Source of the DNA: a virus
Reading direction: 5' to 3' (one strand)
Virus record (IMG/VR): IMGVR_UViG_3300012178_000001
Location: 1-64,000 of that record
DNA length: 64,000 nt
Within the stretch, counting starts at the first letter, position 1. Each line of letters starts with the position of its first letter. Made by a program: the position numbers and the translations under genes. This document shows, one piece after another, positions 1,295 through 63,811 of this stretch. The notes beneath the pieces were generated by a model. It had not been told where the DNA came from and searched no databases. It saw nothing but the letters and a program-made list of their open reading frames with translations.

Positions 1295-1306
1295 AACAAT
1301 AGATTA
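1295..1306 (+). promoter_or_regulatory. Late-type promoter AACA-N6-TA
   Basis: AACAATAGATTA upstream of the tape-measure gene; matches the AR9 late consensus. Confidence 0.65.
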
Positions 1307-1359
1307 ATTAAATTGAGATATCGGATATACATATAAATAAATAGTTAAAGAAAGGGGCA

Positions 1360-4300
1360 ATGTGTCATATGAGTGTAATAAAAAATTTAGGTAAGTCGTT
1401 CCTATACTCTATTCCAAGTGCGTTAGGTACAGTAATGCCTACTGTTGCTGATTATAAAAGAAATATAAGCCTTCCCCAGCAGTCTAGAAAGATGATGATA
1501 GACCATCGCAGATTAGTTGAACGTGGTATGACTAAGTGGGATGATACTGGCGGAAACTTGATGAAGAATTTAAAGAATGACATAAAGAATGGTACTAGTG
1601 ATAATGATACTAGTGATTTTTTTGATGATGGTTTTGATGATGACTTCGATTTTGAAGATGATGTTAGTGAAACTACTACATCAGATGGTGGAACCAATAT
1701 ACAGTCAAATAAAATAATAAAAGACAATCGGAAGACTATGAATCAAGTTAATATAAATGGACCCGACACTGAAGTTGTTGCTAATGAAATGAAGAAGCAA
1801 TCAGGATTAAATATATTATTGAATGATAATATACTAAGATCTATGTCAGTTATGTCAGAGCAGATGAATCAAATAAATCAATTCAATCAAGAAGCTACAC
1901 TTACTCATTATCAAAAGACTGGTAAGTACAGAGCTGCAATGGTTGGAAACATGGCAGATATAAATAATAAGTTAGAAAAGCTAGTAGATTTACAAACTAG
2001 TAGAAATAAATTTATGGGTACTGATGAAGATGAAAGTATTGAAAGAAGAAAATCTCAGTTTGATAGAGTTATAAGTTATAATGGTCAAATGAGCTTTAGT
2101 AATTATATGAGTGAAGTAGTTAAGAATGCTAAAAGCGGTGGTGGAATGTTCGGTATGCTGTTAGAAGAAGTAATAGCTAATCCACTTAAGTTTGTAATGG
2201 AAGAAACTATTAATGCTGTAATACCGCAAAGTTTTAAAGACTCTATGAAAAACTTAGATGATATTATTAAAGGACTTCCTTCCGCATTTATATTAAAAAT
2301 GAATGATTGGGCATTAGAGGACAATCCATTTAAGAAATTCTTAGGTGGAATGTTAGGACTATCTACTGGTTGGTCTAATGAGCCTAAATCAGATATATAT
2401 AAAAAGGGTAGTACTAGTTTTGATGGTGTTACTAGAAAAGCTATAACAGAAGTTATACCTACATTATTATCTAAAATTCACAGTGCAATATCAGGTCAAA
2501 AAGAAATGGTATATGACTATGAAGAAGGTGTATTTCGTGGTAAGCAAAAATTATTAGATGACCGTAAAGATAGTATTCGAAACATAATGAGTGGAAGAGA
2601 CGAAGACAAATTAGAAGTGTATAATGGTATCCTTAAGGATAAAGGGATAACTGCCGATTCTGAATTAGGAAAGTCATTAAGAAATGATATAGATAAGATA
2701 TTAGACGGTTATAATATGAGAGGTAAAAGTCCTGATAAAGCATTGACTAAGAAGCATATAGACGGTTCATTAAATAATTCGACATCAGTAGATATGGTTA
2801 ACAGTTTAATTCAAGATAATCCTGAACTAGCTATGAAGATATCATCATCCATAGTTGGGGCACAGGACTCATATAAAGATTTCTTATTTAAAGAAGGCTC
2901 TAGTGTAGATTTTGCAGATAGTGGTATAATGCAGGCACTTAATGATAGACAACTTAAAAAGGATTTTAATAGTACTAGAGATACTAAAAATTCTACATTC
3001 TATGATAAGAAGAATAAGAAAGATGATAAAGACAAATCCGTAAGTGAATTCATGAATGATATATTTTCATCTGATAACAAATTTACCGATAAAGCTAAGA
3101 AATTATTATCAGTACCATTTAAGGCATTAGAAAGAGGTGCTGATAAGGCATCTAAATCATTAGCTAACGTTTTCTTTGGAAATGATAAGAATAGAGAGAA
3201 GGATGACGGTTTATTTAACTCGATAGGTAAAAAGTTTAATGAGTCTATATTTAAGCCACTAAATAAATTAATGTTTGGTGACAAAGATAGTAATGGGAAT
3301 GTACCATCTGACTCAATATTTGATAAAGGTATATTCACATCTGTTAAGGAATGGTTTAGTGACTATCTAGTAAACCCTACTAAGAATTTCTTATTCAGTG
3401 AGCAAGAGATGGATGCTAAAGGAAATATCATTAAGAGTGGTGGAGTAATAACAAGATTTAAGAATAATGTAAGCAATATCTCTGCAAATATATCTGAATC
3501 ATTATTTGGTGAAAATGGATATGCTGATAGTGTTAAAGAAAAAGGTATGGGAATATTAGAGTCATTTAGAGAAAATATGATTAACTATGGAAATAAAGTA
3601 GAACAGTATTTATTTGGGGAACTAGACTCAGATGGTAATCGTGTAGCTAGTGGTGTTATTAATGAAGAAGTTAAGACTAGTTTAGCACATGCTACTGCAG
3701 GTTCTTTATTAGGCTCAATGTTTATACCAGGGTATGGTAAGGTAATTGGTGCTGTTGCAGGCTATGTGCATGGAATGGATAATGTTCAGGAATACTTATA
3801 TGACAAAGATGATGGTTTATTCTATAAATGGGGAAGAAACTTTAAGCAATTCTTCGTAGGTGAAGAAGAACTTGACTCTGAAGGTAATGTTATTAAGAAA
3901 CGTGGTATACTGAAAAATGCACAAGATACTATAACTGACAATATTATAAATCCTGCTAAGAATTATTTATTTGGGGAAGAATATGAGAAAGATGGTAAGT
4001 TATTTAGATCTGGTGGATTTGTTGATGAAGTTAAGATAAAGACTTCTGAACTATTTGAAAAGGGTAAATTATTCCTTTTAGGTGATGAAGATAATGAAGG
4101 TTTATTCTCATCAGCAATAACATATACACGAGAAAATATCTATGAACCAATTAAGAGAACTATATTTGACACATTTGATGACTTAAGAACTTTTATGACT
4201 GAAGAAGTATTTAATCCAATTAAGAAATCTATGAGACCATTTTGGGAAGAGTTTAAAGTTCAGATGGGTAATTTCAAAGATTGGGGTTCAAGTGTAATAA

Positions 4301-10005: not shown

Positions 10006-10074
10006 ATTTTAAACAATCTTTAACAATTATTTAATAAGAGTACATACTAGATTGTAAATAAAGGAGAAAATATT

Positions 10075-14991: not shown

Positions 14992-16368
14992 TTATTTGAA
15001 CATTAGCTTAAATACAGGTTTACCATCATCATTTTTATCAGTGGCAATAAATGGTGTTGAAAAAACACCCTTATCAAACCCTATTCCTTTTTCATTAGGA
15101 ATATCACTAAGTTCTCTTATACTTATATCTGAAGGATTTATATTTCCTTTACCTATAAAACTCAAATTCAATATATCTCTAATGGACACCTTAGTCATAT
15201 CTGTACTACCTAGAGATACTTTATTAAAATCTAACAGTGTATCTGGTTCCATATCTTCTTTATAACTATATGCATACTGTATAGATGGTTTAATTGATTC
15301 AACCTCACCTTTTTGACCTCCAAATGCACTATATGGAGCAGATATTGGTGCTACTCCTACATACTTAGACCAATATTGTATAGTCTCACCATCTGGTGTT
15401 AATGAGAAGTAATATATAGATGATAAGTATTCAAGTTCCCTATTAGCTACACTCTCTGCACTAGGTACAACTTCTCCAAATCTTACCTTTTCAATATAAT
15501 CTAACCATGCCTTATGAAGTTTAGTTATAATTCCTCCACTAATTTCATCATATTCTATAGAAAATGTTCCTCCATTAATACTATTTATTACTGAGATAGG
15601 TTGATTTATTTTATAGCCCTTCCATGTCTCATTCATTTCCTTTGTTCTCATAACTTGATCTTGTGTTTCAAATCCTTTATATCTATTAGTTATTAATTTT
15701 ATAAACATTGATGGATTTCTAGATGATTTATCTGAGAGCATATGCAATATCTCAGGATTAGTACTCTCTAATAATTTAAAGAATGCGTTATTATCAATAT
15801 TTAATCTATAACTATCGCCAGACTCTGGAACTAAATTCAATCTAGGTTTAGTTATAAATATATAGTTAACTCCCTTAAGTGCAAAATCTGTATTGGAGTT
15901 ATACTTATTATACTTATTAAACATATCTATCTCATCTATTTCCATTTGTGCATTCTTACCAAATATTCTTCCGTTTATAGAGTTCTCTAATTTAGGTAAT
16001 ATCTTAAGTACTTCCTCATAATCTCCACCTCTAAAGGATTCTAAATTAGTAGCTCTAACACCTCTATTGGTTGTAGTGAATCCTCTATCTGTTCCCATAG
16101 CTAATGAACTTGGTTCAGGACTTGAATCTGGTATAAATTCTGTTTCCTCTATCTGTTTTTGCGGTTTAACGTTAGAATCATTACTGTTATCCTCAATCAC
16201 AGGCTCAGGCTCAGGGTCATTATTGATAGTAATTGACTGCCCTGGATATATTAAGCTTGCATTTTCAATCTGAGGATTTAAAGCTAGTAATTGATTTAAA
16301 TCTAAACCATTAGCACTTGCTATTTTCCATAATGAATCTCCACTCTTAACTGTATATTTAGAAGCCAT
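14992..16368 (-). CDS. LysM-domain tail-tube-fold baseplate protein
   Basis: N-terminal LysM (YTVKSGDSLWKIA...LLALNPQI...LIYPGQSI); C-terminal FSIEYDE...HKAWLDYI...YWSKYVGVAPIS resembles the tube/gp54 fold; late promoter at 16431-16442 (-). Confidence 0.7.
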   Translation of the reverse strand: MASKYTVKSGDSLWKIASANGLDLNQLLALNPQIENASLIYPGQSITINNDPEPEPVIEDNSNDSNVKPQKQIEETEFIPDSSPEPSSLAMGTDRGFTTTNRGVRATNLESFRGGDYEEVLKILPKLENSINGRIFGKNAQMEIDEIDMFNKYNKYNSNTDFALKGVNYIFITKPRLNLVPESGDSYRLNIDNNAFFKLLESTNPEILHMLSDKSSRNPSMFIKLITNRYKGFETQDQVMRTKEMNETWKGYKINQPISVINSINGGTFSIEYDEISGGIITKLHKAWLDYIEKVRFGEVVPSAESVANRELEYLSSIYYFSLTPDGETIQYWSKYVGVAPISAPYSAFGGQKGEVESIKPSIQYAYSYKEDMEPDTLLDFNKVSLGSTDMTKVSIRDILNLSFIGKGNINPSDISIRELSDIPNEKGIGFDKGVFSTPFIATDKNDDGKPVFKLMFK

Positions 16369-16430
16369 AATTAAACTCCTTTCTTTTCTATTAAATTTGT
16401 ATTTACATACAACATCCGTTATTTTCCTTA

Positions 16431-16504
16431 TAATTAAATGTTACATTTATATTTTTTATTGAAATTCTAATTTTTAGTTAAAAATATAACAAAACATTAT
16501 ATTA
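16431..16504. promoter_or_regulatory. Divergent pair of AACA-N6-TA late promoters
   Basis: AACATTTAATTA on - strand (16431-16442) and AACATTATATTA on + strand (16493-16504). Confidence 0.65.
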
Positions 16505-16552
16505 AATAAGTAAACATGCTAATATATAAAGAATATAGAAAGGAGAACATAT

Positions 16553-17878
16553 ATGTTTCATATAGGTAATATGATCGATTTAGTAAGTAGTATGAAAGAT
16601 ATGATTACTAATGGCAGTGGAAAAAATTCCTCTGATAAAATCAATGGTAAATTCCTAGATTTATTTGATAAAGATGTCAAAAGCATTAATAGACGTGCTA
16701 AAAATAATATCTTTCAATTCCCATTGCTTGTAAGTGATAATATTGAGAAAGAAACATTAAACAACTTTAGACGTGCGTCTGAACGTGAATACGCATCATT
16801 AATTCAGTATGTAATTGCTGGAGATGATTTAGTAGACATTGATGATAAAAAATCTAAAGAAGAATGGTTAAAGAGTTTTCACCGTAACCATGATATTAGT
16901 ACATCACCAAGTAAAAGTGATGTAGTAGATTTAAGAGGTTTAGTTAATAGTCACCTTAAAGAGGGAACAAGATTGTTTGATGACTTAGAGTCATTACTAG
17001 AAGGTAACTTAGCAGAATTTAGAGATTCTGAAATTGAATTACTTAATAGAAAACAGTTAGTTCCATTTAAGGAACAGTTAACTAATGGTAATATTAATGA
17101 TATGACTATTAAGAAGATAACAATATTAGGGGAAGATGGTGAGGAAGATAATGAGAATATAGGAGATAAACATAAACGTCTCAAATATCAACTTGACTAT
17201 GACCAAGCTACTAAAGGTGTCTCATCTACTAAAATAGATGATGATGATATTAAAGCTCTTAATAGAAAAGTTCCCACTAAGTTAGAATTATATTTAGACT
17301 ATAAAACTGATGGTGCATTTAAATCAACTAAGTTAATACTGGGTATCAGTTGTGTTAGTCATTTAATTCCTACAGATGAGATGATGTATTTCATTTCTAA
17401 ATCTATTGCTGAAGATAACTTTATATTCCGTACAATACAATGGACTACAGGTGAGATTGAATTCTTTAAAGACTTCATTCTTTCATTAGATAGAATTAAA
17501 TATGAGAATTCTAAACTAAGTAGTGGTTCATCAAAATGGTGGCATCATTTAAGACAATTAGGTAAGAAAAGTACTCTTAATAGTTTCTTTAATAAGAATG
17601 ACTTTATACCAAATGCAACAATGGCATTAACTATGGCAGAAGTAGAGCACATGAAGAATGTCAATGGTGTTAGTGTTATGGATAATGCTGGTAGATTACT
17701 AGATACATTCTTTTTAATGAGATTAGTTATCTTAGACGATATTAGTGAGGTTGCATACTACTTTAATGATGATACAAATGATTGGAGTAGATATTCATAT
17801 AATGAGTTATTCCGTGGCGATAAGTCAGGTAGTGGAAGTGAAATTAAAGCCCTAGTGGATTTAATTAGTAATAGATAA
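16553..17878 (+). CDS. Putative virion structural protein
   Basis: 441 aa; AAGGAG RBS; late promoter; structural neighbourhood. Confidence 0.6.
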   Translation: MFHIGNMIDLVSSMKDMITNGSGKNSSDKINGKFLDLFDKDVKSINRRAKNNIFQFPLLVSDNIEKETLNNFRRASEREYASLIQYVIAGDDLVDIDDKKSKEEWLKSFHRNHDISTSPSKSDVVDLRGLVNSHLKEGTRLFDDLESLLEGNLAEFRDSEIELLNRKQLVPFKEQLTNGNINDMTIKKITILGEDGEEDNENIGDKHKRLKYQLDYDQATKGVSSTKIDDDDIKALNRKVPTKLELYLDYKTDGAFKSTKLILGISCVSHLIPTDEMMYFISKSIAEDNFIFRTIQWTTGEIEFFKDFILSLDRIKYENSKLSSGSSKWWHHLRQLGKKSTLNSFFNKNDFIPNATMALTMAEVEHMKNVNGVSVMDNAGRLLDTFFLMRLVILDDISEVAYYFNDDTNDWSRYSYNELFRGDKSGSGSEIKALVDLISNR

Positions 17879-17888
17879 GAAAGGAGTA

Positions 17889-18857
17889 GTGAAACGGATG
17901 ATATTAGATGAAGCATTAGAAGCTAGCACCTTAGAGCAGTTTCTTGAGGGTGTAGTAACTAAAAAAGGTTATGATGCAGTAAGATATAGTAAGCTTAATG
18001 AGTCTGATAAAGAACAGATGAAAGGTAATCTTATTAATAAAGTATTTGAAAGTGTTAAATCAAAATCACTTAATATTGATTATGGATATATTAAAAAATC
18101 TAATGGAGATATAGAAAGACTTAAACATTATGATGATTTAAAGGATTCAATCGATATGTTAGATTCTTTATATAGAAAAGATGAAAATGCCTTAAATGAT
18201 GTTCCTGAATTGCAAAAAGCTCTTAAGAATATTATTTATTACAAGAAAGATTTCATGAGAGCATTTAAAAATAACAATACTCTTGTAATTATGTTCTATA
18301 ACAATATAGTTGCAGGTTTATTATATACAACATCTGTTATTATAGCAGAATATGTAGAGCACATTAAAGAAGCAAATGGCATGTTAACACCTAAGTTTAA
18401 AGAGATTGATAAACAACCTAAGGGATTATTCCTAAATAACTTAAAGTCTTTTAATAAGATGGTTATTAATGGTAAGTTTGAAAGCTTCCTTAAATCAGAT
18501 GGTGAACAACTTACAGGAGGTACATTAATAGGTGTCTCTGTATTAGCAGTTATGGTAGCGTTATGGTTAATTAGAGAAATAGTATTTATCTTTTTATATA
18601 TGAGAAATACAATTTCAGATTACTTAATGCAATTATCATATTTTGTAGAATTAAATTCACAGAAGTTATCATTAAACGGTAACGACAAAGTTGTTGAGAA
18701 ACAAGAAAAAGTAGCAGAGAAGTTAGTAAAGTTATCTGACAAGATATCAGTGGATTCAAGAGTTTCTACTAATAAAGGTTTAAATGAATTGCAACGAGAT
18801 AACAAAGAATTAAATATTGACGATTTAAATAGCGTTAATAATAGTGATTTATTATAG
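17889..18857 (+). CDS. Putative virion protein with one hydrophobic segment
   Basis: GTG start after AAAGGAG; LIGVSVLAVMVALWLI segment; N-terminal LDE/ALE/FLE motifs. Confidence 0.6.
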   Translation: MKRMILDEALEASTLEQFLEGVVTKKGYDAVRYSKLNESDKEQMKGNLINKVFESVKSKSLNIDYGYIKKSNGDIERLKHYDDLKDSIDMLDSLYRKDENALNDVPELQKALKNIIYYKKDFMRAFKNNNTLVIMFYNNIVAGLLYTTSVIIAEYVEHIKEANGMLTPKFKEIDKQPKGLFLNNLKSFNKMVINGKFESFLKSDGEQLTGGTLIGVSVLAVMVALWLIREIVFIFLYMRNTISDYLMQLSYFVELNSQKLSLNGNDKVVEKQEKVAEKLVKLSDKISVDSRVSTNKGLNELQRDNKELNIDDLNSVNNSDLL

Positions 18858-18943
18858 TTAGATTAATAACATAATATTAATAAATCCAAATGTTGAATTT
18901 TAATAGATTAATCGATTATAGGAAAAGAAAGGGGACATATTAT

Positions 18944-19927
18944 ATGTTTTTACATGAAAATACTAAGATCAATGAGGACTTAAAATTAGAAAACGTATCT
19001 GCTCTTTTAGAGGATACAGATGAAATGAACAAGATTGAGAAGAGATACGAGGGTTTAACTTTCTCTGAAACTCAATTACAAATTGAATTAGAATCAGAAA
19101 GATTCTTTAGTGGCTTAAACATGTCAATGGTGTTAGCTGAACATACAGCTATCGTAAATGAAAATGCTGAGTTATTAAATGAGGCTTCTGCTGACTATTT
19201 CCAAAAAGTTAAGGATTTCTTTGAAACTTTAGTTAGAAAAGTTAAAGAATTCTTCAAGAAGATTGGTGGAGTTCTTAAGAAGTTAGGCGGTAAGGTTAAG
19301 AATGCACTTAATAAGGTAAAAGATGTTGCATCTGGTATCAAATTCAAGTTCAAATCTACTGCTTATGAAAATGTTATTAATGGTTCTTTTAGTGTTCCTG
19401 ATTTCAAAATCCCTTCTAAGTTAACTGCTTTCGATAAAGAAAGAATTGATAGTAAGCGTGCTTTAGAAGAATTAGGATTCAAGAAGTTAGAAAATGCTGG
19501 AGCAATCAAAGATGAAATGTTAGGTAAGCAAAGATCTGATTTAGATATTAATTCTGGAATGATTAAAAATGCTCAAAAAGTATTAGACAAGTTCGATGCA
19601 TTTACTAAGAAGATTGAAACTTATGAAAAAGCAACTAACCAAGTTTTAGATAGAGCACTTAAAATTGCTAACAAAGGTTTATCTGTTAAGAAAGGTGAAG
19701 AAGCTACTAAGTATAAGATTCTTTTAGATAATTCTAAGATGATTTCTTCTACACTTAACACATTAACTTCATCTGCTACAAAGGCAGTTGTTACAGCTAC
19801 TAATAATGCTTATGCAATTATTAATGCTGGTGTAAAAGCTACAAAAGTTGAAAGACCTGGCAGAGGTGGAGATAAGAAAAAGAATGAATCAGGTATATTA
19901 TCAACATTCGGTTTTGAAACTGAGTAA
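18944..19927 (+). CDS. Putative internal head protein with acidic propeptide
   Basis: AAAGGGG RBS before ATG 18944; acidic N-terminus ending LLNE/A, then Lys-rich body; own late promoter 18868-18879. Confidence 0.6.
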   Translation: MFLHENTKINEDLKLENVSALLEDTDEMNKIEKRYEGLTFSETQLQIELESERFFSGLNMSMVLAEHTAIVNENAELLNEASADYFQKVKDFFETLVRKVKEFFKKIGGVLKKLGGKVKNALNKVKDVASGIKFKFKSTAYENVINGSFSVPDFKIPSKLTAFDKERIDSKRALEELGFKKLENAGAIKDEMLGKQRSDLDINSGMIKNAQKVLDKFDAFTKKIETYEKATNQVLDRALKIANKGLSVKKGEEATKYKILLDNSKMISSTLNTLTSSATKAVVTATNNAYAIINAGVKATKVERPGRGGDKKKNESGILSTFGFETE

Positions 19928-19944
19928 TATAACTGTATATAAAA

Positions 19945-19980
19945 ATAATGACATAATACTTAATTGTATTATGTCATTAT
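19945..19980. terminator. Bidirectional terminator
   Basis: ATAATGACATAATAC-ttaatt-GTATTATGTCATTAT between convergent genes. Confidence 0.7.
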
Positions 19981-19984
19981 TATT

Positions 19985-21271
19985 TTATTCTATAATCTTT
20001 TCGAATATACATACTCCCATTAAAGAGAATCTACTCCCATCACCAGTAGCATTCTTAACACCAAAATTATATCTAACTTCAGAGAGTTGATATTCTCCAT
20101 TATATGGTACATAATCTGCATTAGTATACGTTATAATATATTTCTTATTAGGTGTAATAAAATCTAACTCAACTCCAGCAATAGGAACTATTAATTTATA
20201 AGAACTACGCTTAGAGTCTCTTATAAATGAATTCATAACATAAGGATTATCCATAGCAGTATTAATATACACTTGTTCCTTATCTTTAGCCATATTCTTA
20301 TCACTTGCATTAGTCCACTTATGTTTTCCACTCTTTATAGTTGTTGTTTGCGTATTCTCTAAGAATGTTATCTTCTCTCCATTTATTTCTCTATTACTTA
20401 TACCATCCATTACAATACTACCTAATGATGGAACTTTTATCCTATATGTACTATTTTCATCATCTATAAAACTACCCATAGATGTGTCCACAGAGGTGTC
20501 ATTAGAATCAACCATAGTTATATGAACATTAGGATACTCACTAGGTGCAACAATTGGATTACTAACATCATTAGATATACAGTAATATCTATTGAATCCA
20601 AAAAATAGTTTCAATCCATTATTATATATACCGTAATATGACTGTAAATAACTCATAGTATTCACTATATTCATAGATGGTAGTAATATATCATTATATA
20701 TTTTCCAATTATCAGGTTTTTGAAGTAGTATTCCCTTATTTATACTTTTATTAAAGCTATACATCATAGCATTAAATATATTTGTGGACTTCAATACTTT
20801 AGATAGTACAACCTTATTCGACATTAAATGGTCACTGAGCATAAAATCTATATCCACTGTAAAGTTAGGATTATGTGTATCTTCTACATTATTTTGTGCA
20901 TTCACCAAGTCAAATTCAAAGTCTATTGGATATAATGTTACATTCTTAAGGTATGATGATGTTAGTCTATATGATTCATTATCATCTCTACTTCCAACCT
21001 TTATCTTTTCAGATGAGAATAAAAACTTACCTTCTTCTAACCCAGTTTGTAGTTCTATTAATAATGGTCTACTTAATACCATGCTTACACTTATTATTGG
21101 GAATACATATTCGTTAAATGAGAATAAATTCATTATGTTATTTATATATCCCTCTAGCTGTAATTTCTCACCATCTTTAGATATGAATAATAGTTTTATA
21201 TTATAGTCATGAATATTATACTTACTAAGACTCGTATTATCTAAATAATCATTATTTAGTATATTCTTCAT
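19985..21271 (-). CDS. Putative baseplate hub protein
   Basis: 428 aa beta-rich; C-terminal ITPNKKY...YNGEYQLSEVRY resembles hub proteins. Confidence 0.45.
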   Translation of the reverse strand: MKNILNNDYLDNTSLSKYNIHDYNIKLLFISKDGEKLQLEGYINNIMNLFSFNEYVFPIISVSMVLSRPLLIELQTGLEEGKFLFSSEKIKVGSRDDNESYRLTSSYLKNVTLYPIDFEFDLVNAQNNVEDTHNPNFTVDIDFMLSDHLMSNKVVLSKVLKSTNIFNAMMYSFNKSINKGILLQKPDNWKIYNDILLPSMNIVNTMSYLQSYYGIYNNGLKLFFGFNRYYCISNDVSNPIVAPSEYPNVHITMVDSNDTSVDTSMGSFIDDENSTYRIKVPSLGSIVMDGISNREINGEKITFLENTQTTTIKSGKHKWTNASDKNMAKDKEQVYINTAMDNPYVMNSFIRDSKRSSYKLIVPIAGVELDFITPNKKYIITYTNADYVPYNGEYQLSEVRYNFGVKNATGDGSRFSLMGVCIFEKIIE

Positions 21272-21307
21272 TAATTCTTACCACCTTTCAAAAAAAAAAA
21301 GAGAGGT

Positions 21308-22483
21308 CTAACCCTCTCCTTCCATAATTTCATCTAACTGTAAAGGAAAGTGCGTAAAGTATTTGTCATTTATTTCACGTAATCCCTTATAATCACCTTT
21401 ATCAACGAATGCACTATTAAATAATTCTTCGTCAGCCTCATCAAAATACTGTATATAATTATCTACATCAATTAATAAATAGTTATTACGTACAACTTCT
21501 AGGTCTTCATCACTCAATTTATCCAGTTTACGTATACCCTCTATAAAATTATCAATATCGTACGGTATATTTGAAAGAAAATCTTTCTTAATAGCTTTCT
21601 CTATAAGACGTGAACTTTTTATAATACCATAACCTCTGATACCAGATAGTGAGTATTTTTTGTAACCTGATATAGCTAAAATGAAAGGTAAAAAATCTGG
21701 AAGTAAATTAATACTATCGATAGACTTAGCCTTTGAGAATCTCTTAATAGCGTTAGTCGAATCATACAGTTTACTTTTATCAGACCTAGCAGTCATCACC
21801 ATACAATCATTTGGATTGTGTATTACATTTAATAAAGATAGTTTATCATTACTATAAATTAATGAGTATTCGTCCTTGCTCTGGAATTGCATCATATAGT
21901 GAGGTACAACATTATAATCGATATGTTTAGTATTAATTAGGTATGCATGTGGAATATTATCAATTATAGGTTTCATAAGTGTAATATTAGTTTGAAGTAA
22001 CTTATTTATAGTTTTAAATTTCACAGTATCATCAACACGTTTACTATAAAATTTCTTTTTATATTCATCATTAATATTCATATGAAATTCACTTCTCTCA
22101 TCAGAGTAATAGAATATAAAGTTAGTATATAGACCTTTTCTGGATATAAAATAATGCCTATAATGTGCAACAAGATTTACAAGTTCACTAGTTATCATAA
22201 ATTTTTCATGTTCATTTAGTGTAGGCAATGATTCTTCTATAACTTGTGGTGAATATAGAGTATTTATAACACTATAAATATCAATAAACATATTAACTGT
22301 ATCTATGTTTTTAGGTAATTCATACTCTAATAATTCATCTAATACTTTATACTTTATCTTCTTAGAATTTAGTATTTTCTCTACTGCTGAACCACCGTTG
22401 TTTATATGCTCTCGTGCTTTCTCAAATTTTCTTTTTCTCTTACTTTTAACAAGTCCTTTAGATGTAACTTCTCTAATTGACAC
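21308..22483 (-). CDS. 5'-3' exonuclease / T4 RNase H (FEN)-like protein, active site degenerate
   Basis: MFIDIYS, EYKKK, YSNDK and helix-3-turn-helix GIRGYG motifs; several canonical Asp residues absent. Confidence 0.6.
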   Translation of the reverse strand: MSIREVTSKGLVKSKRKRKFEKAREHINNGGSAVEKILNSKKIKYKVLDELLEYELPKNIDTVNMFIDIYSVINTLYSPQVIEESLPTLNEHEKFMITSELVNLVAHYRHYFISRKGLYTNFIFYYSDERSEFHMNINDEYKKKFYSKRVDDTVKFKTINKLLQTNITLMKPIIDNIPHAYLINTKHIDYNVVPHYMMQFQSKDEYSLIYSNDKLSLLNVIHNPNDCMVMTARSDKSKLYDSTNAIKRFSKAKSIDSINLLPDFLPFILAISGYKKYSLSGIRGYGIIKSSRLIEKAIKKDFLSNIPYDIDNFIEGIRKLDKLSDEDLEVVRNNYLLIDVDNYIQYFDEADEELFNSAFVDKGDYKGLREINDKYFTHFPLQLDEIMEGEG

Positions 22484-23018: not shown

Positions 23019-23198
23019 CTTCATCATCCTCTTTATCAGGATTTCCAATAGTTATTTTATTCTTTTCTCCACTTGATGCTAACATAACAAAGAATAAACC
23101 TATTAATGCGTTGATATCCTTTGTGATATATAAAGCGAACATAATACATACTATCCCACTCACCCATATAATTGTATTTTAATTTCTTTATTATCCAT
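23008..23198 (-). pseudogene. Small two-TM membrane protein gene with a frameshift
   Basis: GGAGGGG RBS and ATG give MDNKEIK; the -1 frame continues NTIIWVSGIVCIMFALYIT...LIGLFFVMLASS...EDEL-stop; break lies in an A4 run. Confidence 0.45.
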
Positions 23199-23220
23199 TT
23201 TGATCCCCTCCCTTGTATTC

Positions 23221-23460: not shown

Positions 23461-23473
23461 GAGATGAGACAAG

Positions 23474-24133: not shown

Positions 24134-24167
24134 GTTATATCATATAAATGATATAACCCCTTTTTTT

Positions 24168-24698: not shown

Positions 24699-24820
24699 AA
24701 TCTATTGCTCTCCTTTCTAAATATTTTATTAATAACATGTTAATATATTATTAAATTGAATGAGGATGTAAGAGTGAATAACAGACAAAGGATATTATTA
24801 GTATTTAATCATTGAAATAT

Positions 24821-43168: not shown

Positions 43169-43233
43169 ATATTTAAATAAATAAAGTTAACTAATTATTA
43201 TAGAGATAATAGAAATTTAAGAAAGGTGATAAA

Positions 43234-43605
43234 ATGAAAAGTAATGAAAAAGAATTATTAGAAGGAAATGTAGATAAGTTAAAGAACTTAGACACAAGTA
43301 ATTTAAGCTTAGAAGATGACTTTGGCAACTTACGTATATTCCATAATCCAGATGAAGCACTAGTAATAGCAGGTAGACTTCAAAAACAGAATGAAGATAT
43401 CTTATATTGTGAACTCAACTCAGGTTATTCATTAGAGCATGGAGAATTTATTACAATTAATCCAGTCTATAGAAAAAATAAAAAACAAAGGTTAAAAGAA
43501 TTTCCTGAACTTACTCTAAAGGCTGTATGGGTACAAATGCTAGAGGAAGCAAAATTGTTAGAAGAAAAATTAGAAGAATTGAATGGGGATGATAAAAATG
43601 ATTAA
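43234..43605 (+). CDS. Hypothetical protein
   Basis: AAAGGTGA RBS; AACT-N6-TA variant promoter 43189-43200. Confidence 0.7.
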   Translation: MKSNEKELLEGNVDKLKNLDTSNLSLEDDFGNLRIFHNPDEALVIAGRLQKQNEDILYCELNSGYSLEHGEFITINPVYRKNKKQRLKEFPELTLKAVWVQMLEEAKLLEEKLEELNGDDKND

Positions 43606-43912: not shown

Positions 43913-44042
43913 TAATTAAATTGAACTAATATCCTTTCGGGTATTAGTTCTTTTTTTTTTCGTAAATAATGGCATTCTACTTATATATTATAATAATGAT
44001 AAAATAAATATAAGTCATTATAAACTATAAAGGAGTGTTATT

Positions 44043-44763: not shown

Positions 44764-45462
44764 CTATTTTTTTTTTGACTTGCTATAATCAATAAGACTA
44801 ATGGGTTCTAGCTTACTATTAGTTTGAATATCAATATCAAGAAATCCATTATCTGTACTATCATCAGTTGTAGACATTTCTACTAACTTATTAAATTTTT
44901 TTATATCTGATAAACTTATATCCTTTAAATATGACTTTACAAATTTACTGATGTTTCCAAATATCTGCTTTAAGTTTATGAATAGATCTCCTTGGTGAGC
45001 TAACTCATGAGATGTAATTGATAATGGAACTACACCCACCATATGTTGAAAATGTAAATCCATAACTTCTTGTGCCACTAATAACGTACTGACCTTTTCT
45101 TTATTATTTAAACGTTTTTTAAGTACTATGGTTACTATATCATATAGGCTAAATGGATAATGATGGAACTCTATTGATGCCATATCATCATCTACTTTCC
45201 CCATTACAGCACAGAAATCTAATTGATAATCTTCTTTTAGAATAGAAAGATATTCTCTATAAGGCTGTGATTGTCTTACTATTGACTCTACTTTCTTTAC
45301 GAATCTCTTAAATTCTTTTGCATCATATATAGAAGTTGTATAATATGAACTAGCAAATATATCATCTTTTGATTTACCTATAGATAGATTTTCATCCTTA
45401 TCTACAGTAGTTATATCAACTATATTGTTGTTACTTGGTATTTTACTCTTATCTATTGCCAT
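44764..45462 (-). CDS. HNH-like fold protein (paralogue of 37296-38009)
   Basis: IEFHHYPFSLYD...GVVPLSITSHELAH; late promoter 45498-45509 (-). Confidence 0.55.
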   Translation of the reverse strand: MAIDKSKIPSNNNIVDITTVDKDENLSIGKSKDDIFASSYYTTSIYDAKEFKRFVKKVESIVRQSQPYREYLSILKEDYQLDFCAVMGKVDDDMASIEFHHYPFSLYDIVTIVLKKRLNNKEKVSTLLVAQEVMDLHFQHMVGVVPLSITSHELAHQGDLFINLKQIFGNISKFVKSYLKDISLSDIKKFNKLVEMSTTDDSTDNGFLDIDIQTNSKLEPISLIDYSKSKKK

Positions 45463-45587
45463 AACTGACCTCCTAAGTGTAATTCTTATTCACATGTTAA
45501 TTAAATGTTAATGTTGAGTTTTGTTATTTTTATTTTAATGTGAACATTTTAATAATAGTGTTAATTGAAAGGAAGGAGTTGTATACT

Positions 45588-50284: not shown

Positions 50285-51523
50285 ATGAAGAATTATATAT
50301 CTACAGGTGATAAACAATACTTATTATCATTAGAACCTAGTGATGTCACTAAGGATTTATTTATTGATTTATTTGCAAATGACATAGAAAAGCAAGGATC
50401 AAGATTTGAGACTAATGATAAGATGAGCTTAACAATAGATGAGATACAAAGAAAATTTAATACTGAAAATATACTTGGTGATGGAAAAGGCAATAAAACA
50501 TCTATATCAACTACCGTAGGTAGGTACATATTTAATCTATATTTAGATATGGCGAATATATTTGGATACATTAACCAAGAACTAAGTGGTGGAAAAATAA
50601 AGGGTCTAAACTCAATATTATCGTCCAAGTTATTAGAACGAGATATTGAAATAGAAAAAGCATTTGAGTTTGTAGATAAAATGGACTGGTTAGGATATTC
50701 TATTAATAGAATGATTGCATCATCACTGACATATGATTTATTAGAACCATTACCTGAAGTTGAAAAACTCAAGAATGAGTTATTTGAAAAATATGCTAAT
50801 GAAATAGAAAACAAAGATATGGCAATCGTGAGTAAGATTGAAGATGAACTTTTAGATTTATCTAGGAAGTTACTAAAAGAAAAAGGTATAAGTGACTTTG
50901 ATATTTATGAATCGGGTGCTAGAGGTAGCTTCAGTAATAACTATAAGAATACAACTATAATGAGAGGTATTATAAAAGATCCATCAGATACCGACAATTT
51001 CTTTATATCTAAGAGTAGTCTTATGGATGGAATACCTAAGGGCGAATTCCATAATTATGCAAACTTAATCGTAGCCGCTTCATATTCAAGGGCTGTAGGA
51101 ACACGTTCGGGCGGTTATGAGGCTAAGAAGCTTAATGCCGCTTTTCAGACAGTTGTTCTAGATGATAAAGATACTGACTGTGGTACTAATAAGACTATAA
51201 AAGTCCATTTAACTGAAAGAAATAAAAGTCAGTATAGTTATAGATATATTATTTATAGAAATAAGATGATACAGTTAGATGAAGAATCACTTGAGAAATT
51301 CACTGGTAAAGTAGTTAATATGCGTACACCATTATATTGTACTAATGAAAAGATTTGTAGTAGATGTGCAGGAGACTTATTCTATAGAATAGGTATTCAA
51401 AATGTAGGTCTACTTGCTAATCGTGTAGGTACTAAACTGCTTAACTTAGCATTAAAAGATTTCCATGATGTTAGTATTACTATGCATGATATAAATATAA
51501 ACGATTATATAACAAGGCAATAA
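50285..51523 (+). CDS. Multisubunit RNA polymerase beta-prime C-terminal subunit (probably virion RNAP)
   Basis: TTVGRYIFN, ESGARGS, bridge helix TRSGGYEAKKL, DCGT, MRTPLYC...ICSRCAG; located in a late structural operon. Confidence 0.85.
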   Translation: MKNYISTGDKQYLLSLEPSDVTKDLFIDLFANDIEKQGSRFETNDKMSLTIDEIQRKFNTENILGDGKGNKTSISTTVGRYIFNLYLDMANIFGYINQELSGGKIKGLNSILSSKLLERDIEIEKAFEFVDKMDWLGYSINRMIASSLTYDLLEPLPEVEKLKNELFEKYANEIENKDMAIVSKIEDELLDLSRKLLKEKGISDFDIYESGARGSFSNNYKNTTIMRGIIKDPSDTDNFFISKSSLMDGIPKGEFHNYANLIVAASYSRAVGTRSGGYEAKKLNAAFQTVVLDDKDTDCGTNKTIKVHLTERNKSQYSYRYIIYRNKMIQLDEESLEKFTGKVVNMRTPLYCTNEKICSRCAGDLFYRIGIQNVGLLANRVGTKLLNLALKDFHDVSITMHDININDYITRQ

Positions 51524-51558: not shown

Positions 51559-51585
51559 TAAATTCGCATCTATATTATAACTAAA

Positions 51586-51602
51586 TATATATTATAATAA
51601 TG
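51586..51602 (+). promoter_or_regulatory. Early-type promoter TATATTAT-N5-TG
   Basis: TATATATTATAATAATG heading the small-gene cluster. Confidence 0.55.
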
Positions 51603-55992: not shown

Positions 55993-56099
55993 TGGATGAA
56001 ATGAGGTGTGTTTATGTACACCTCATTTTTTTTAGTCATGTTTAAAACATATATTATAATCTTGGTAATATTATGAAGTAGACAGAAAGGAGGCAATTA

Positions 56100-56224: not shown

Positions 56225-57607
56225 ATGGTGTATTTAATGAAGATAATTTTCAAAGATGTCAATAATTGGTTTGACCCTAAAATGGTAGTGACTAATCCTG
56301 AAGGAATAGACCAAAAGACAAAAAAATTTAAACCTGATGGCGTATTTTCAGAGAAGATATTTGGAAAGCTTGATGGTGACAACATGTCTTATACGTGTGA
56401 GTGTGGTGGACACAAAGGAGAATTCTATAAAGGTAAAGAATGTCCTATATGTAAGACAGAAGTACGTTTCACTGAACCAATGTTACAAAGAACGGGATGG
56501 ATTGACTTAGGTGATAAGTATATCATATCTCCACTGTTTTTTAAATTCATAGAGAAGTTATCTAGAAAAAAGACTTTAATAAATATGATTGATTTTGAAG
56601 CTGTTCTAGATGTAAATGGTAATATAGTTGCTAATGATGAGGATAAAGAAAAGAATCCTTATAGAAATATAGGTATGGATGAGTTTAGGCATAATTTTGA
56701 CGAGATCATTCAATATATCTATGAAAATGCAACTACCAAAGAGAAAGATAATCTTATGAGTTTGATAAATAATAATAGAGATAAGATATTTATAAATAAG
56801 ATACCCATCTATTCCATAACACTTAGACCTGCACTAATGATTAAAGATACACTAAAATTAGATGAGGTTAATAATTATTACAACTTAATAATAAGAAATA
56901 GCAACTTAATTAAAGCTGAAATTGATAATGATGTCATTAATATGCCATTATTATATACAATCCAGAATGAAGCTAATAAAGTATTTGACAAAGTACTTGA
57001 AAACATTAAGGGTAAAGACGGATTCATACGTAACAATATGATAGGAAGTAGAATTAACTTCTCATCACGTAATGTAATCACACCATTACCTAAAGGATAT
57101 AAATTAGATGAAGTAGTTTTACCTTATCTAACATTTTTAGAGTTATATAAATTCCATATAATAAACATTATAAGTAGAGTTAAGAAGATAACTATTGTGC
57201 AAGCCACAAATATTTGGTATCAAGCAACTACAAATTTTAGTAACGAAATTTATGATATCATGATGGACATCATAAATAAGACTAATAAAGGTTGTAAGAT
57301 TCTACTTAACAGAAACCCAACTATTGCTATCGGAAGTATATTATGCTTAAATATAGCAGGAGTTAAGAAAGATTACACAGATCTGACATTGGGTGTAAAT
57401 AATGTAATTCTAAGTCCCTTAAATGGTGATTATGATGGTGATACATTGAATATAGTTCCTATATTTGATGATGAAATGAAGAAGGTATTTTCTAATGCTT
57501 TCTCACCTAAATCTTTAATGATTAGTAATAATAATGGTAAGTTCAATTATAAGCTTAATATTGAAAGAGATCAAGCACTAGGTATATATACATTTAATAA
57601 TGCTTAA
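56225..57607 (+). CDS. Multisubunit RNA polymerase beta-prime N-terminal catalytic subunit (probably non-virion RNAP)
   Basis: DGVFSEKIFG, CECG...CPIC Zn ribbon, KGKDGFIR, GSRINFSSRNVITP, LLNRNPT, LNGDYDGD catalytic motif. Confidence 0.92.
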   Translation: MVYLMKIIFKDVNNWFDPKMVVTNPEGIDQKTKKFKPDGVFSEKIFGKLDGDNMSYTCECGGHKGEFYKGKECPICKTEVRFTEPMLQRTGWIDLGDKYIISPLFFKFIEKLSRKKTLINMIDFEAVLDVNGNIVANDEDKEKNPYRNIGMDEFRHNFDEIIQYIYENATTKEKDNLMSLINNNRDKIFINKIPIYSITLRPALMIKDTLKLDEVNNYYNLIIRNSNLIKAEIDNDVINMPLLYTIQNEANKVFDKVLENIKGKDGFIRNNMIGSRINFSSRNVITPLPKGYKLDEVVLPYLTFLELYKFHIINIISRVKKITIVQATNIWYQATTNFSNEIYDIMMDIINKTNKGCKILLNRNPTIAIGSILCLNIAGVKKDYTDLTLGVNNVILSPLNGDYDGDTLNIVPIFDDEMKKVFSNAFSPKSLMISNNNGKFNYKLNIERDQALGIYTFNNA

Positions 57608-57668
57608 GTTTTAAGTATATATTATACTATTGGTTGTTATATTATTTAAAATAAGAGAGGACGGTAAG

Positions 57669-58168: not shown

Positions 58169-58266
58169 TTTTATAAATTAATAAGAAAACCTTAGCGGGT
58201 TTTCTTTTTTTTTTATTATGAAACATGTTATTAATATTACAGTATATAGAAAGGTGGTTTATATAA

Positions 58267-59511
58267 ATGAAACGTGACAATTATATTGCAAGGGCACAAG
58301 CGACTACATCAGTATCATCTATAATGGGTAATGTAAGCTATGTAGCAAAGAAATACATACTAAGTAAATTCCCTAAGAATTACTTTAATGAGATTACTAT
58401 TGCTAATGGACTTATATCATCTGATTTAAGAGAGACTGATGAAGATGTAAAGAAGAAACCTAATCCTAAATTATCTATAAATCCTATATTTATTCCTGAT
58501 GAGAATGATACATTCGGAGGTTCCTTACCAGAATGGTACAATAGTGGGGAAAGTTTTATAATGAGAGATACACTTAATAACTATCATCCAGTACTTTATA
58601 ATGATACTGATGAGATTTATATATGGACTGTACCTAATAAGTTAAAGTTAAATTTTGATATAAAGATTAAACTAAATACATCAATGCAAAAGATTGATTT
58701 ACTTCACTACTTAAGACGTATATTCTTAAATAATAAGCATATGTATATTAACGATGTCACACTTAAAGCTGAAGTTCCTAAAGAGTTTATAGCAAATGTT
58801 GCAGACCTAAAAGGACTAGACTTAACAGTTGAGGATGATATAATTGAGTTGTATAATTATTTACAAAAATTTTCTAATGGATATATCACAAGACAGATGA
58901 ATTTATCATCAGGTTTACCAACATATCAGTATAGGTTTATATCCAATATACTAATGAAGGTTGAAGAGCCTCCTAGTGGAGAGACTGAACGTGTGAGTAT
59001 GACTGAAGGCGAAAGTGAGGTTCAGACTACATTTTCGTTTGAGTTATGGATTCCAACTAATTATATTATAGAAAGCAAGGACCCACTCTCAGAGAGTGAT
59101 GGTTTTGATGATATCCTGAACAATGATAGTTACATCAGTTACTCATTCAAAACAAAGCCTGTTAGAACAATTGACGATAAAGTTGAACTATTTTGGCAAG
59201 CTTTTGTTACTGATATTGATACTGCAGAAGATATAATTGGCTTATCCCCTATAATCTCTACTAATAATAAGGAGATTATTGCACATATGATAAGTAACGA
59301 AGTATTAATTACGGACTATTATGATATAGATGTATATAGAGATGGGGAGCAACTAGAGGAAGATGTTGACTACTCATTCGACTGGAATTTACTAGAACTA
59401 TCTACATTTAATCCATTCCAGAACTATACACATCATGTAGGTTTATATGGGGATCTTAAAAAGATAAAAGATTATTATGATGAAAATATTAAAGAAGAAA
59501 AATTACTATAA
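58267..59511 (+). CDS. Putative neck / tail-terminator structural protein
   Basis: 414 aa; PKLSINP, VPNKLKLNFDIKIK resemble the gp15-type fold; late promoter 58222-58233. Confidence 0.45.
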   Translation: MKRDNYIARAQATTSVSSIMGNVSYVAKKYILSKFPKNYFNEITIANGLISSDLRETDEDVKKKPNPKLSINPIFIPDENDTFGGSLPEWYNSGESFIMRDTLNNYHPVLYNDTDEIYIWTVPNKLKLNFDIKIKLNTSMQKIDLLHYLRRIFLNNKHMYINDVTLKAEVPKEFIANVADLKGLDLTVEDDIIELYNYLQKFSNGYITRQMNLSSGLPTYQYRFISNILMKVEEPPSGETERVSMTEGESEVQTTFSFELWIPTNYIIESKDPLSESDGFDDILNNDSYISYSFKTKPVRTIDDKVELFWQAFVTDIDTAEDIIGLSPIISTNNKEIIAHMISNEVLITDYYDIDVYRDGEQLEEDVDYSFDWNLLELSTFNPFQNYTHHVGLYGDLKKIKDYYDENIKEEKLL

Positions 59512-61344: not shown

Positions 61345-61629
61345 TTATCCTACTATGTCATTATTATTATCATCATTATAGTTATCTCTTTCTCCATCAT
61401 TTGAATTTTTCTTGATATCAATGAACTTACTAACTCCATTAATGCCAAAGTGTCCAGCTAATATGACCATGACAGGTTGCTTAAGCAATTCTATCAATGA
61501 TAATCTATCTGGACTAATGTGAGATGTGAACGATACTATTATTAAACCTAAATATACAACCGCAAATATAAAACTTAAGAACTCACTAATAGTGAACCCT
61601 TTCTCATCATTAAAAAATGTTTTGAACAT
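61345..61629 (-). CDS. Putative holin (two TM)
   Basis: 94 aa, two hydrophobic segments, charged C-terminus, directly upstream of the endolysin; late promoter 61663-61674 (-). Confidence 0.6.
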   Translation of the reverse strand: MFKTFFNDEKGFTISEFLSFIFAVVYLGLIIVSFTSHISPDRLSLIELLKQPVMVILAGHFGINGVSKFIDIKKNSNDGERDNYNDDNNNDIVG

Positions 61630-61768
61630 TTTGAATCATCCTCCTTATATTATCCTAATTATTAATAAATTGTTATAGACTAGTTAGCATAACCCATAAA
61701 CATTTTATTAAGTATATAGTGAGTATATATTTAAATTAATTAAATTATAGAAGGAGATATATGATAAT

Positions 61769-62806
61769 ATGATTGGTAGATTGAAAGATACATTAAAGTC
61801 ACAAAAACATATTCTTTATATTCTCTTATTTGCAGGTTTAGCTTTATTAATTCTGCTTACATCATTTGTATATGTATATAATACAATATATGAAAATGAG
61901 ACAGCAAGAAAAAATGAGGACATACAAAATATAGAGGAAGTATATAAGTGGAACTTTATTCGTTCCCTAATAACTAGTACAAGAGATACCGCTAAATTAA
62001 ACTCAGAGAAAATCAGAGGTGAGATTGAGCATGAATTGAGATTACAATATGATGGAGAAATGGACCAATTGAAATACGATATTGATAATCTAACTTCTAG
62101 TTCAAGGTTCTCTAAAATACTTAATAATTCGATAGATGGAGAATATATAGTAGTTCAGAATGATAATAATGACCCATCGATAGGAGTTATAAAGTATGGA
62201 ATCTATAGTGATAAGAGTGAAAATTACTCTATTGAAGAAGGGGAAAAACGCTCTTGGGCTAATGAAATAGATTCTCATGCAAATAAGAAACTAGCAGAAC
62301 AAGCAATTGAAACATTTAAAAATATAGAAAATAGTAGTACTAAACTAATTTTCTGGGAATATCTAGAGTCAAGGGATGAAGATCATATAATGATAGAAAA
62401 TATGTCTGAGAGAGAACTTAAGAGGGTATTCCTAGAGGAAGGTCTATATGGTCTGCAAACATACGAGTTCTTAAGTTTTTCATTTATTGATGATAATGGA
62501 ACAGATGTATTCGGTAAATTTGATGTAGGTAATTTAGGAGTCCGAAATGACAACTATAAAATTATTGTAATTCAAGGCTTTAATATTGTTGACTTGATAA
62601 GAACTAAGTATAAAGATCAACTCAAAGAATTTGATTATATGAAACAATTAAGAATTAAAGAGTATAATAATAAGGTAGCTACAAGTAGAATATTATTAAC
62701 GCTTATGACACTAATAGCATCTATATTCTTTATATCCATTGTTAATATATATAATGGAATAATAACTGGAATGGATATTACAGATGAGAAGAATAATATC
62801 AACTGA
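61769..62806 (+). CDS. Two-TM membrane protein with large extracytoplasmic (Cache-like?) domain
   Basis: TM at about aa 15-37 and aa 308-328 around a ~270-aa alpha/beta domain; late promoter 61699-61710. Confidence 0.6.
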   Translation: MIGRLKDTLKSQKHILYILLFAGLALLILLTSFVYVYNTIYENETARKNEDIQNIEEVYKWNFIRSLITSTRDTAKLNSEKIRGEIEHELRLQYDGEMDQLKYDIDNLTSSSRFSKILNNSIDGEYIVVQNDNNDPSIGVIKYGIYSDKSENYSIEEGEKRSWANEIDSHANKKLAEQAIETFKNIENSSTKLIFWEYLESRDEDHIMIENMSERELKRVFLEEGLYGLQTYEFLSFSFIDDNGTDVFGKFDVGNLGVRNDNYKIIVIQGFNIVDLIRTKYKDQLKEFDYMKQLRIKEYNNKVATSRILLTLMTLIASIFFISIVNIYNGIITGMDITDEKNNIN

Positions 62807-63227: not shown

Positions 63228-63253
63228 AACAGATAACCTAAGGGTTATCTGTT
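63228..63253. terminator. Bidirectional terminator
   Basis: AACAGATAACC-taag-GGTTATCTGTT. Confidence 0.7.
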
Positions 63254-63733
63254 AATTATTTTATCTGAGTGTAATAAATCTTTAGGTGTTATATTACCAG
63301 TTCTATATTCAGGAACTATATCAATGCCTAAATCAATATAGATATTATCTAACATTTCAGAACATATGAATTCATTCTTATTATTCAAGACTATATCTAT
63401 ATTAAATAGTATTCTAAGCCAAAAACCTAGTGTTAGTTGTATATAATCATAATCTATACCTACAGTCTTTATTATAGCTTTTCTTAAATTGCCTAAGTCA
63501 TAGTTTCCTTCTTCAAATTTCTTTACATAGTATACTTCATAGTCATCTTCATCATACTTGTCTAATCGTCTTATAACAATATCATCATATGTAGTCTCAG
63601 CAATTAATCTATCTTCAGCATCATATACAATTGCAACATGACTAAATTCAGTTCCTAGAATCTTAGTTATAATCCATGAATACCACTTAGTAGGTCTAAC
63701 GAATATAAGGTCACCATCTTTGATTTTTTTCAT
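63245..63733 (-). CDS. Permuted papain-like NlpC/P60 amidase (YiiX/YebB family)
   Basis: GDLIF, FSHVAI, GIDYD, FICSE, ITPKDL; His precedes Cys; late promoter 63761-63772 (-). Confidence 0.85.
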   Translation of the reverse strand: MKKIKDGDLIFVRPTKWYSWIITKILGTEFSHVAIVYDAEDRLIAETTYDDIVIRRLDKYDEDDYEVYYVKKFEEGNYDLGNLRKAIIKTVGIDYDYIQLTLGFWLRILFNIDIVLNNKNEFICSEMLDNIYIDLGIDIVPEYRTGNITPKDLLHSDKIINR

Positions 63734-63811
63734 AAGTTATCACCCTTCATATATTTTAATTAATTATATGTTGAAATTTAGCATAACCATTACAGTTATG
63801 CTAAACATATC

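Follow-up and report, generated by a model that had tools for sequence, protein, structure and literature searches.

Does the 64,000-nucleotide stretch that opens viral record IMGVR_UViG_3300012178_000001 (referred to here, at its full length, as the window) carry the late promoter of Bacillus phage AR9, AACA-N6-TA, and, if it does, is that promoter read from DNA in which deoxyuridine (dU) stands in place of thymidine? To our knowledge, the AR9 enzyme is the only multisubunit RNA polymerase (RNAP) known to read a template-strand promoter through deoxyuridines. AR9 late promoters, mapped by differential RNA sequencing, follow the consensus AACA-(6N)-TA/G, the last base of which is the start site (PMC5312081), and AR9's non-virion RNAP (nvRNAP) holoenzyme, whose fifth subunit gp226 is sigma-like, reads the template strand as 3'-UUGU-N6-AU (PMC9209446, PMC7598289). 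An earlier note on this DNA had described the AR9 readout as going through deoxyuridines of the template strand, in agreement with the latter two papers. The record was subjected to PHROG and PDB searches and to a local tblastn against AR9, and these show it to be a fragment of a jumbo phage like AR9 and PBS1, uncultivated and recovered from lake metagenomes.

The earlier note had listed 19 copies of AACA-N6-TA in the intergenic DNA of the window, 12 on the plus strand and seven on the minus strand, together with two AACT variants at 28972 and 43189, and all of these are present. Its further claim that the sites lie 5' of open reading frames (ORFs) and face them stands for 18 of the 19 sites and fails for 24734 (+), which faces the 3' end of a gene encoded on the minus strand. 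The sites, with the genes that follow them, are as follows.

1295–1306, plus strand: late motif AACAATAGATTA, 65 nt before the 2401-aa tape-measure gene (AR9 g204 orthologue; the AR9 g204 motif is 72 nt upstream)
10022–10033, plus strand: late motif, 53 nt before the RusA gene (AR9 g208 orthologue)
16431–16442, minus strand: late motif, 74 nt before virion-protein gene 14992–16368 (AR9 g213); divergent partner of 16493
16493–16504, plus strand: late motif before virion-protein gene 16553–17878 (AR9 g214), with overlapping or alternative matches at 16488 and 16513
18868–18879, plus strand: late motif before gene 18944–19927
23422–23433, plus strand: late motif, 52 nt before gene 23474–24133, with a second match at 23397
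24730–24745, both strands: palindromic pair TAATAACATGTTA(T/A)TA, the minus copy at 24730 being 43 nt before gene 24168–24698
24734, plus strand: plus copy of the palindrome, the mirror half of 24730 (-), antisense into 24969–26852
26892–26903, minus strand: late motif, 51 nt before the Hef-like homing endonuclease gene 24969–26852
28482–28493, minus strand: late motif, 43 nt before gene 27698–28450
28972–28983, plus strand: AACT variant AACTAATTATTA, 63 nt before gene 29035–30582 (AR9 g231 orthologue)
31312–31323, plus strand: late motif, 66 nt before the GroEL-like chaperonin gene (AR9 g228)
37262–37273, plus strand: late motif, 55 nt before gene 37317–38009 (AR9 g242)
39388–39399, plus strand: late motif, 134 nt before small ORF 39522–39773 and the RNase H gene
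43189–43200, plus strand: AACT variant AACTAATTATTA, 45 nt before gene 43234–43605
45498–45509, minus strand: late motif, 47 nt before gene 44764–45462 (AR9 g261), with a second match at 45487; divergent partner of 45543
45543–45554, plus strand: late motif, 36 nt before the virion-protein gene ending at 48086 (AR9 g260; the AR9 motif is 35 nt upstream)
58222–58233, plus strand: late motif, 45 nt before gene 58267–59511 (AR9 g251)
61663–61674, minus strand: late motif, 45 nt before gene 61345–61629; divergent partner of 61699
61699–61710, plus strand: late motif, 70 nt before gene 61769–62806
63761–63772, minus strand: late motif, 39 nt before gene 63245–63733

AACA-N6-TA is a genuine promoter signal, specific in strand and in spacing and well beyond chance. 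Taken over the whole window the motif is not enriched (84 occurrences against 97.0 ± 9.8 in shuffles), a count that, standing alone, would favor the view that the matches are a by-product of AT-rich intergenic composition. The enrichment over a shuffled background on which the earlier note had made its reading depend is nonetheless present in intergenic DNA, which we analyzed for the entire 92.5-kb record as 62 segments (5,805 nt, 6.3% of the record) against 1000 dinucleotide-preserving shuffles of these segments. Here we count 34 matches where 8.4 ± 2.9 are expected, a four-fold excess that none of the 1000 shuffles reaches (shuffle maximum, 20), and the tighter form AACA-N4-ATTA occurs 19 times against an expected 1.2 ± 1.1. 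The density of AACA-N6-TA is 5.8 per kb in intergenic DNA versus 0.96 per kb in coding DNA, and 28 of the 34 intergenic matches fall inside the window. Thirty of the 34 are co-oriented with the next gene (null fraction 0.57, p = 1e-4), the four others being 1153 (-), 24734 (+), 44028 (-) and 75184 (+); 26 of the 34 are both co-oriented and 30 to 140 nt from the start codon (null 0.28, p = 9e-9). A spacer of six nucleotides gives the 34 matches, and spacers of N2 to N5 and N7 to N10 give 8 to 22. Conservation in the 26 well-placed sites extends to positions on which they had not been selected: 22 have A at -3, 21 have T at -2 and 19 have A at +2. The fuller late consensus is T-AACA-TTNN-ATTA-A.

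The motif is likewise recovered blind. Our own Gibbs sampler, used in place of MEME and given only the sense strand of 37 upstream regions with the ribosome-binding site (RBS) masked, finds TAACAnnTnATTA; its output is nnnTAACAnnTnATTA, and in the best run AACA is present in 22 of the 37 regions and AACT in four. A 4-mer enrichment screen of the upstream regions is dominated by the RBS and does not rank AACA. With strand bias, a spacing peak, conservation of flanking positions and de novo recovery all arguing against chance, and with intergenic shuffles, Gibbs recovery and orientation statistics each refuting it, an origin of the matches in base composition retains practically no probability.

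We compared the upstream regions of 26 pairs of orthologues from AR9 and the present phage. The motif precedes both genes, at similar distances, in eight pairs (g204, g208, g213, g214, g242, g259, g260 and g251) and neither gene in another eight. The genes downstream of the motif here are for the most part virion and other late-type genes, and include those of the tape measure, virion proteins and GroEL.

The window also encodes components of the polymerase to which such promoters would belong, and carries the other AR9 promoter class, as listed here.

34221–35702, plus strand: gp226-like, sigma-like promoter-specificity subunit of the non-virion RNAP, 493 aa (PDB 7s01_A, E = 1.3e-47)
50285–51523, plus strand: virion RNAP subunit (AR9 g264 orthologue, 43% identity)
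51583–51602, plus strand: early (virion-RNAP) promoter AAATATATATTAT-N6-G, an exact 20-base match to the AR9 consensus
56225–57607, plus strand: non-virion RNAP β'N subunit (AR9 g270 orthologue) with a GDYDGD catalytic loop (PDB 7s01_d, E = 1.7e-94; tblastn to AR9)
28–42, 180–194, 33116–33130, 43984–43998, 51588–51602, 56050–56064 and 57618–57632: early-type TATATTAT-N6-G, intergenic, by motif match

The gp226-like protein is 29% identical to AR9 gp226, aligns with 7s01_A over residues 10 to 453 of 493 (11 to 440 of 464 in the structure), and is encoded next to a DNA primase gene, as g226 adjoins g225 in AR9. In a phage collection of 50,697 records, tblastn finds 21 relatives of it, all at ≤30% identity and confined to AR9/PBS1/BpSp-like Bacillus phages, Staphylococcus jumbo phages, Listeria phage LPJP1 and Yersinia phage phiR1-37; a megablast of window positions 16000–36000 against the same collection returns nothing similar. 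The β'N subunit additionally matches phiKZ chain 7ogp_A (E = 2.5e-23). The early-type motif TATATTAT-N6-G is the core of the AR9 early consensus, reported as AAATATATATTAT-(6N)-G (PMC5312081); the window has 15 copies of it where 5.0 ± 2.2 would be expected, nine of these being intergenic, with the site at 33116 before the operon of the g227-like and gp226-like genes and that at 56050 before the β'N gene. By analogy, the arrangement of early-type and late-type promoters appears to reproduce the logic of AR9.

Further relatives were obtained by searching IMG/VR with a five-sequence alignment, which retrieved 11 loci encoding gp226 homologues of 26 to 41% identity; scans of viral contigs with the single gp226-like and β'N proteins had found none. 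Intergenic AACA-N6-TA is enriched in six of the 11 loci, where ≤5 of 300 shuffles reach the observed count. These include two GC-rich members, the complete phage L010 (62% GC; 5 matches versus 0.4 expected) and contig L011 (57% GC; 4 versus 0.2), in both of which the sites lie 33 to 60 nt before an RBS and start codon. The motif recurs in relatives of 24 to 62% GC, whose hosts must differ, and the promoter code spans hosts of very different base composition.

These comparisons bear on whether the motif is read not by the nvRNAP of the phage but by host RNAP, to which it would be an AT-rich element of -10 type or the site of a sigma factor from host or phage. The 3' half (ATTAAT or TATTA) does resemble an AT-rich -10 hexamer. 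Against this, the aligned sites show no -35 element and no conservation upstream of AACA, the invariant AACA at a fixed N6 spacing is exactly the AR9 nvRNAP consensus, the phage encodes RNAPs and a specificity subunit of its own, and the same motif is found across relatives with differing hosts; we consider reading by host RNAP very improbable. Some observations do weigh against AR9-type late promoters: the motif is present before the AR9 partner only in eight of the 26 orthologue pairs and before the gene of the present phage only in two; the nvRNAP subunits βN, βC and β'C were not found on this ~36%-complete fragment, and βN forms half of the uracil pocket; and five of the 11 relatives' loci lack significant enrichment (38 to 144 of 300 shuffles reach the count). 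The AR9-type reading put forward in the earlier note is nevertheless well supported, because the window encodes a gp226 homologue, β'N and a virion-RNAP subunit and carries AR9-like early promoters; the consensus match, and the presence of the motif before orthologues that also bear it in AR9, point the same way. The sites are very likely, as a prediction, AR9-type nvRNAP late promoters.

By homology with AR9, the virion RNAP would transcribe the early genes, those of the nvRNAP among them, and the nvRNAP would then transcribe the late genes. The motif would be a late promoter read by the phage's own five-subunit nvRNAP, the holoenzyme binding template-strand 3'-(U/T)(U/T)G(U/T)-5' at -11 to -8 and holding it between the 2.1bis helix of gp226 and the βN subunit, with transcription predicted to start at the A of TA. 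As a whole, we hold this explanation to be likely, with good confidence, from the homologies described.

What is seen here shares with the late promoters of AR9/PBS1 the invariant AACA, the N6 spacing and T followed by A at the presumed -1 and +1 positions, and shares with AR9 the location of the motif before virion-protein genes, including eight orthologous genes, as well as the cognate subunits and the early consensus. It differs in that the proteins are only 26 to 56% identical (gp226, 29%), in that the phage comes from lake and salt-lake metagenomes, in a substitution of Val206 of gp226 by Met in this assembly, and in a motif that extends further and varies less (A at -3, T at -2 and A at +2; A at +1, where AR9 has A or G) and is therefore detectable without transcript data. 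De novo detection of the late signal failed, by contrast, in the Staphylococcus phage MarsHill (bioRxiv 10.1101/2020.12.14.422802), and a 2020 review states that bioinformatics fails to predict such promoters (PMC7598289). The phiKZ nvRNAP with gp68 is similar in being a split β/β' multisubunit phage RNAP with a fifth, sigma-like subunit; it differs in reading thymine-containing double-stranded DNA with a TATG consensus at the transcription start site (PMC5312081, PMC7598289), whereas here the specificity subunit belongs to the gp226 type, not to that of gp68, and AACA-N6-TA is the consensus.

Does the DNA itself contain uracil, as the earlier note suggested it might? Sequencing reads show U as T, and the letters of the record do not distinguish the two. 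We know of no characterised phage with a gp226 homologue whose DNA is not dU-DNA. In the -10 uracil pocket of AR9, the Cβ of gp226 Val206 leaves no space for a 5-methyl group, the substitution V206G accepts thymine, and Val206 is reported as absolutely conserved in twelve GenBank homologues (PMC9209446). The 2.1bis helix of the gp226-like protein comprises residues 207 to 217, and an ungapped and well-anchored alignment (T-x-Y-S-D-x-V-I-W) places Met, encoded by ATG at codon 209 (34845–34847), where AR9 has Val206. The T-x-Y-S-D stretch and AR9 residues W208 and Y210 are retained in the helix.

An exhaustive representative search reveals a far larger family, with 364 clusters at 50% identity having E ≤ 0.001. 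We scored the residue in the best 150 sequences and six phage references, 124 of which are well anchored. Val is present in 75 of these 124, and is therefore not universal; the remainder comprise Thr (11), Ile (10), Pro (5), Gly (5), Ala (4), Lys (4), Arg (3), Met (2), Ser (2), Asn (2) and Gln (1). Among the 11 IMG/VR loci, position 206 is Val in six, Thr in four and Ser in one. In a FastTree tree of 145 sequences the gp226-like protein of the window is nested among Val-bearing neighbors, the nearest of which all have Val, and all of the other eight homologues first aligned have Val as well.

Public sequencing runs show that near-identical phages circulate side by side with either Met or Val in the recognition helix. 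Parts of the sequence are present in 10 public runs, all of them DNA metagenomes of lake or salt-lake water and none RNA. At 34845, run X1 (a possible source of the record) and the independent run X3 have ATG (Met), and runs X2 and X4, from near-identical strains, have GTG (Val), at read depths over the gp226 codon that are low (3 to 9 in the four runs; 3 to 6 in X2 and X4). X2 and X4 carry further changes within 27 nt (34844–34870), namely a synonymous change at K208 and the substitutions S212G, S216I and R217M; in a 309-nt piece from X2, the five helix changes, M209V included, account for five of the six differences. Four amino-acid changes between strains thus fall within the 10-residue recognition helix, and this clustering makes the promoter-recognition helix a local hot spot of strain variation. 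It is unlikely that near-identical Met and Val strains differ in DNA chemistry. The Val form appears, from the sequence comparisons, to be ancestral, with the uracil-selecting valine kept in the lineage. If the Met and Val strains share one chemistry and Val is ancestral, Met marks no change of base; equally, Met is no proof of uracil selection.

The gene content of the fragment points neither way. The earlier note had proposed looking for a Ugi-like inhibitor, dCTP deaminase and an absence of dUTPase and ThyA; on this ~36%-complete fragment neither dUTPase and ThyA nor Ugi and a deaminase were detected. Small and unknown proteins were scanned with Pfam and NCBIfam for dUTPase, thymidylate synthase, deaminase and Ugi-like proteins with no match, and the fragment, from which about two-thirds of the genome (some 165 kb by the CheckV figure) is missing, yields none of dUTPase, ThyA, ThyX, dCMP deaminase, Ugi and the HAD nucleotidase of AR9 type. 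Among five relatives' records examined, three are complete (239 to 320 kb); ThyA, ThyX and dUTPase occur in none of these three and dCMP deaminase in two. This profile is the one described for Staphylococcus dU phages (bioRxiv 10.1101/2020.12.14.422802).

An alternative, for which the earlier note had also allowed, is that promoter and polymerase are the same and that the genome contains thymine or another 5-substituted pyrimidine, the pocket having been remodelled (Met209, Tyr210) to accommodate a 5-methyl group at -10. The observations that count for it, or that weigh against dU, are these: the discriminating Val is Met and the neighboring Ile207 is Tyr (Tyr210) in this assembly; position 206 is Thr or Ile in 21 of the 124 family members and another, non-β-branched residue in 28, nine of them Gly or Ala; the behavior of AR9 V206G indicates that position 206 tunes the readout (PMC9209446); the known dU phages all fall on one side of the midpoint-rooted gp226 tree and therefore do not bracket this clade; and no Ugi, HAD nucleotidase, dCMP deaminase or other dU-pathway gene was found on the ~36%-complete fragment. 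Set against a thymine genome are the Val found in near-identical strains from two other samples, in which the chemistry is unlikely to differ; the Cβ that Met retains and that clashes with the methyl group in AR9, where the substitution relieving the clash was to Gly; the discrimination at -11, which in AR9 derives from packing of the DNA backbone and not from position 206 (PMC9209446); and the absence of ThyA, ThyX and dUTPase from complete relatives. Remodelling for thymine is possible but, in our judgment, doubtful. For dU speak the Val of the eight homologues first aligned, of the nearest tree neighbors and of the X2 and X4 strains, together with the gene profile of the three complete relatives, and we lean, by a modest degree, toward DNA that carries deoxyuridine in place of thymidine.

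Two loci were considered for a part in nucleotide metabolism. Directly after the g220 orthologue, where AR9 has dCMP deaminase g221, 22473–23024 (-) encodes a HAD-domain protein (PF18143, E = 2e-17); it was considered as a dTMP phosphatase, shows no detectable similarity to the AR9 g151 nucleotidase, and no claim is made for it. The guanylate-kinase-like protein of 40557–41303 (AR9 g238 orthologue) was likewise considered as a dUMP kinase, with no claim made. The ribonucleotide reductase genes that lie 3' of the primase in AR9 are missing from the syntenic place here.

The 364 clusters, the enrichment of the motif from 24 to 62% GC and the complete relatives without thymidylate synthases or dUTPase are the grounds on which we tentatively raise a wider reading, itself rather unlikely at present: a large radiation of uracil-DNA phages, spread widely in the environment and not recognised until now, that would share one uracil-dependent template-strand promoter code, with position 206 varying between lineages (Val, Thr, Ile, Gly, Ala, Pro, Lys, Met) and even between co-circulating strains of this phage. 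The choice of pyrimidine may be tuned by this variation. A literature search that did not extend to supplements (the late-promoter list in Table S3 of the AR9 paper among them) found no report of the AR9 promoter code in metagenomic relatives, which is not proof of absence.

The system is that of AR9 in a distant and uncultivated new member, the differences being the tighter and predictable consensus, the lake and salt-lake habitat and the polymorphic recognition helix. In an uncultivated lake phage, at ~30% protein identity, the specificity subunit and the two classes of AR9 promoter are all preserved, and sequence by itself suffices to predict the late promoter. Because this signal is predictable and recurs in distant, even GC-rich, relatives, the pair of AACA-N6-TA and gp226 could serve as a metagenomic marker for transcription of this kind and possibly for uracil-DNA. 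Metagenomes may under-represent such phages, since uracil-DNA reportedly disturbs standard library preparation (bioRxiv 10.1101/2020.12.14.422802). For biochemistry, a ready-made pair of alleles is provided by the natural Met/Val polymorphism, which affects the residue that separates U from T in AR9.

The window is the first 64 kb of a record of 92,494 bp (30% GC, classed as linear), with completeness estimated by CheckV at ~36%. AR9 is matched in tblastn by 32 of 81 predicted proteins at the identities given above, nearly all in the 167 to 228 kb region of AR9; the common genes encode the tape measure, virion proteins, RusA, GroEL, g227, g226, primase, RNase H and guanylate kinase, and the shared block continues to g259/g260, the virion-RNAP subunit g264 and the β'N subunit g270. 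Beyond the window, at 64 to 92 kb, the minus strand carries a series of very large genes, the longest encoding 1232 aa, that match tail-fibre and virion-protein PHROGs and have no AR9 homologue, probably a host-recognition module; late-type motifs occur in this part at 69474, 75075 and 91019 of the record. Within the window, the product of 24969–26852 (-) is a free-standing homing endonuclease of Hef-like/HNH type (627 aa), which shares 34% identity with AR9 g188 and whose gene has a late-type promoter of its own at 26892. A radical-SAM protein without an AR9 counterpart (38503–39375, +; Pfam PF04055, E = 6e-9) lies between the g242-like and RNase H genes; its identification as MoaA-like was rejected, the sole NCBIfam match being weak and far under the cut-off. 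Finally, 37317–38009 (+) and 44764–45462 (-), the orthologues of AR9 g242 and g261, are paralogues of PHROG 12252, and a late-type promoter precedes each.

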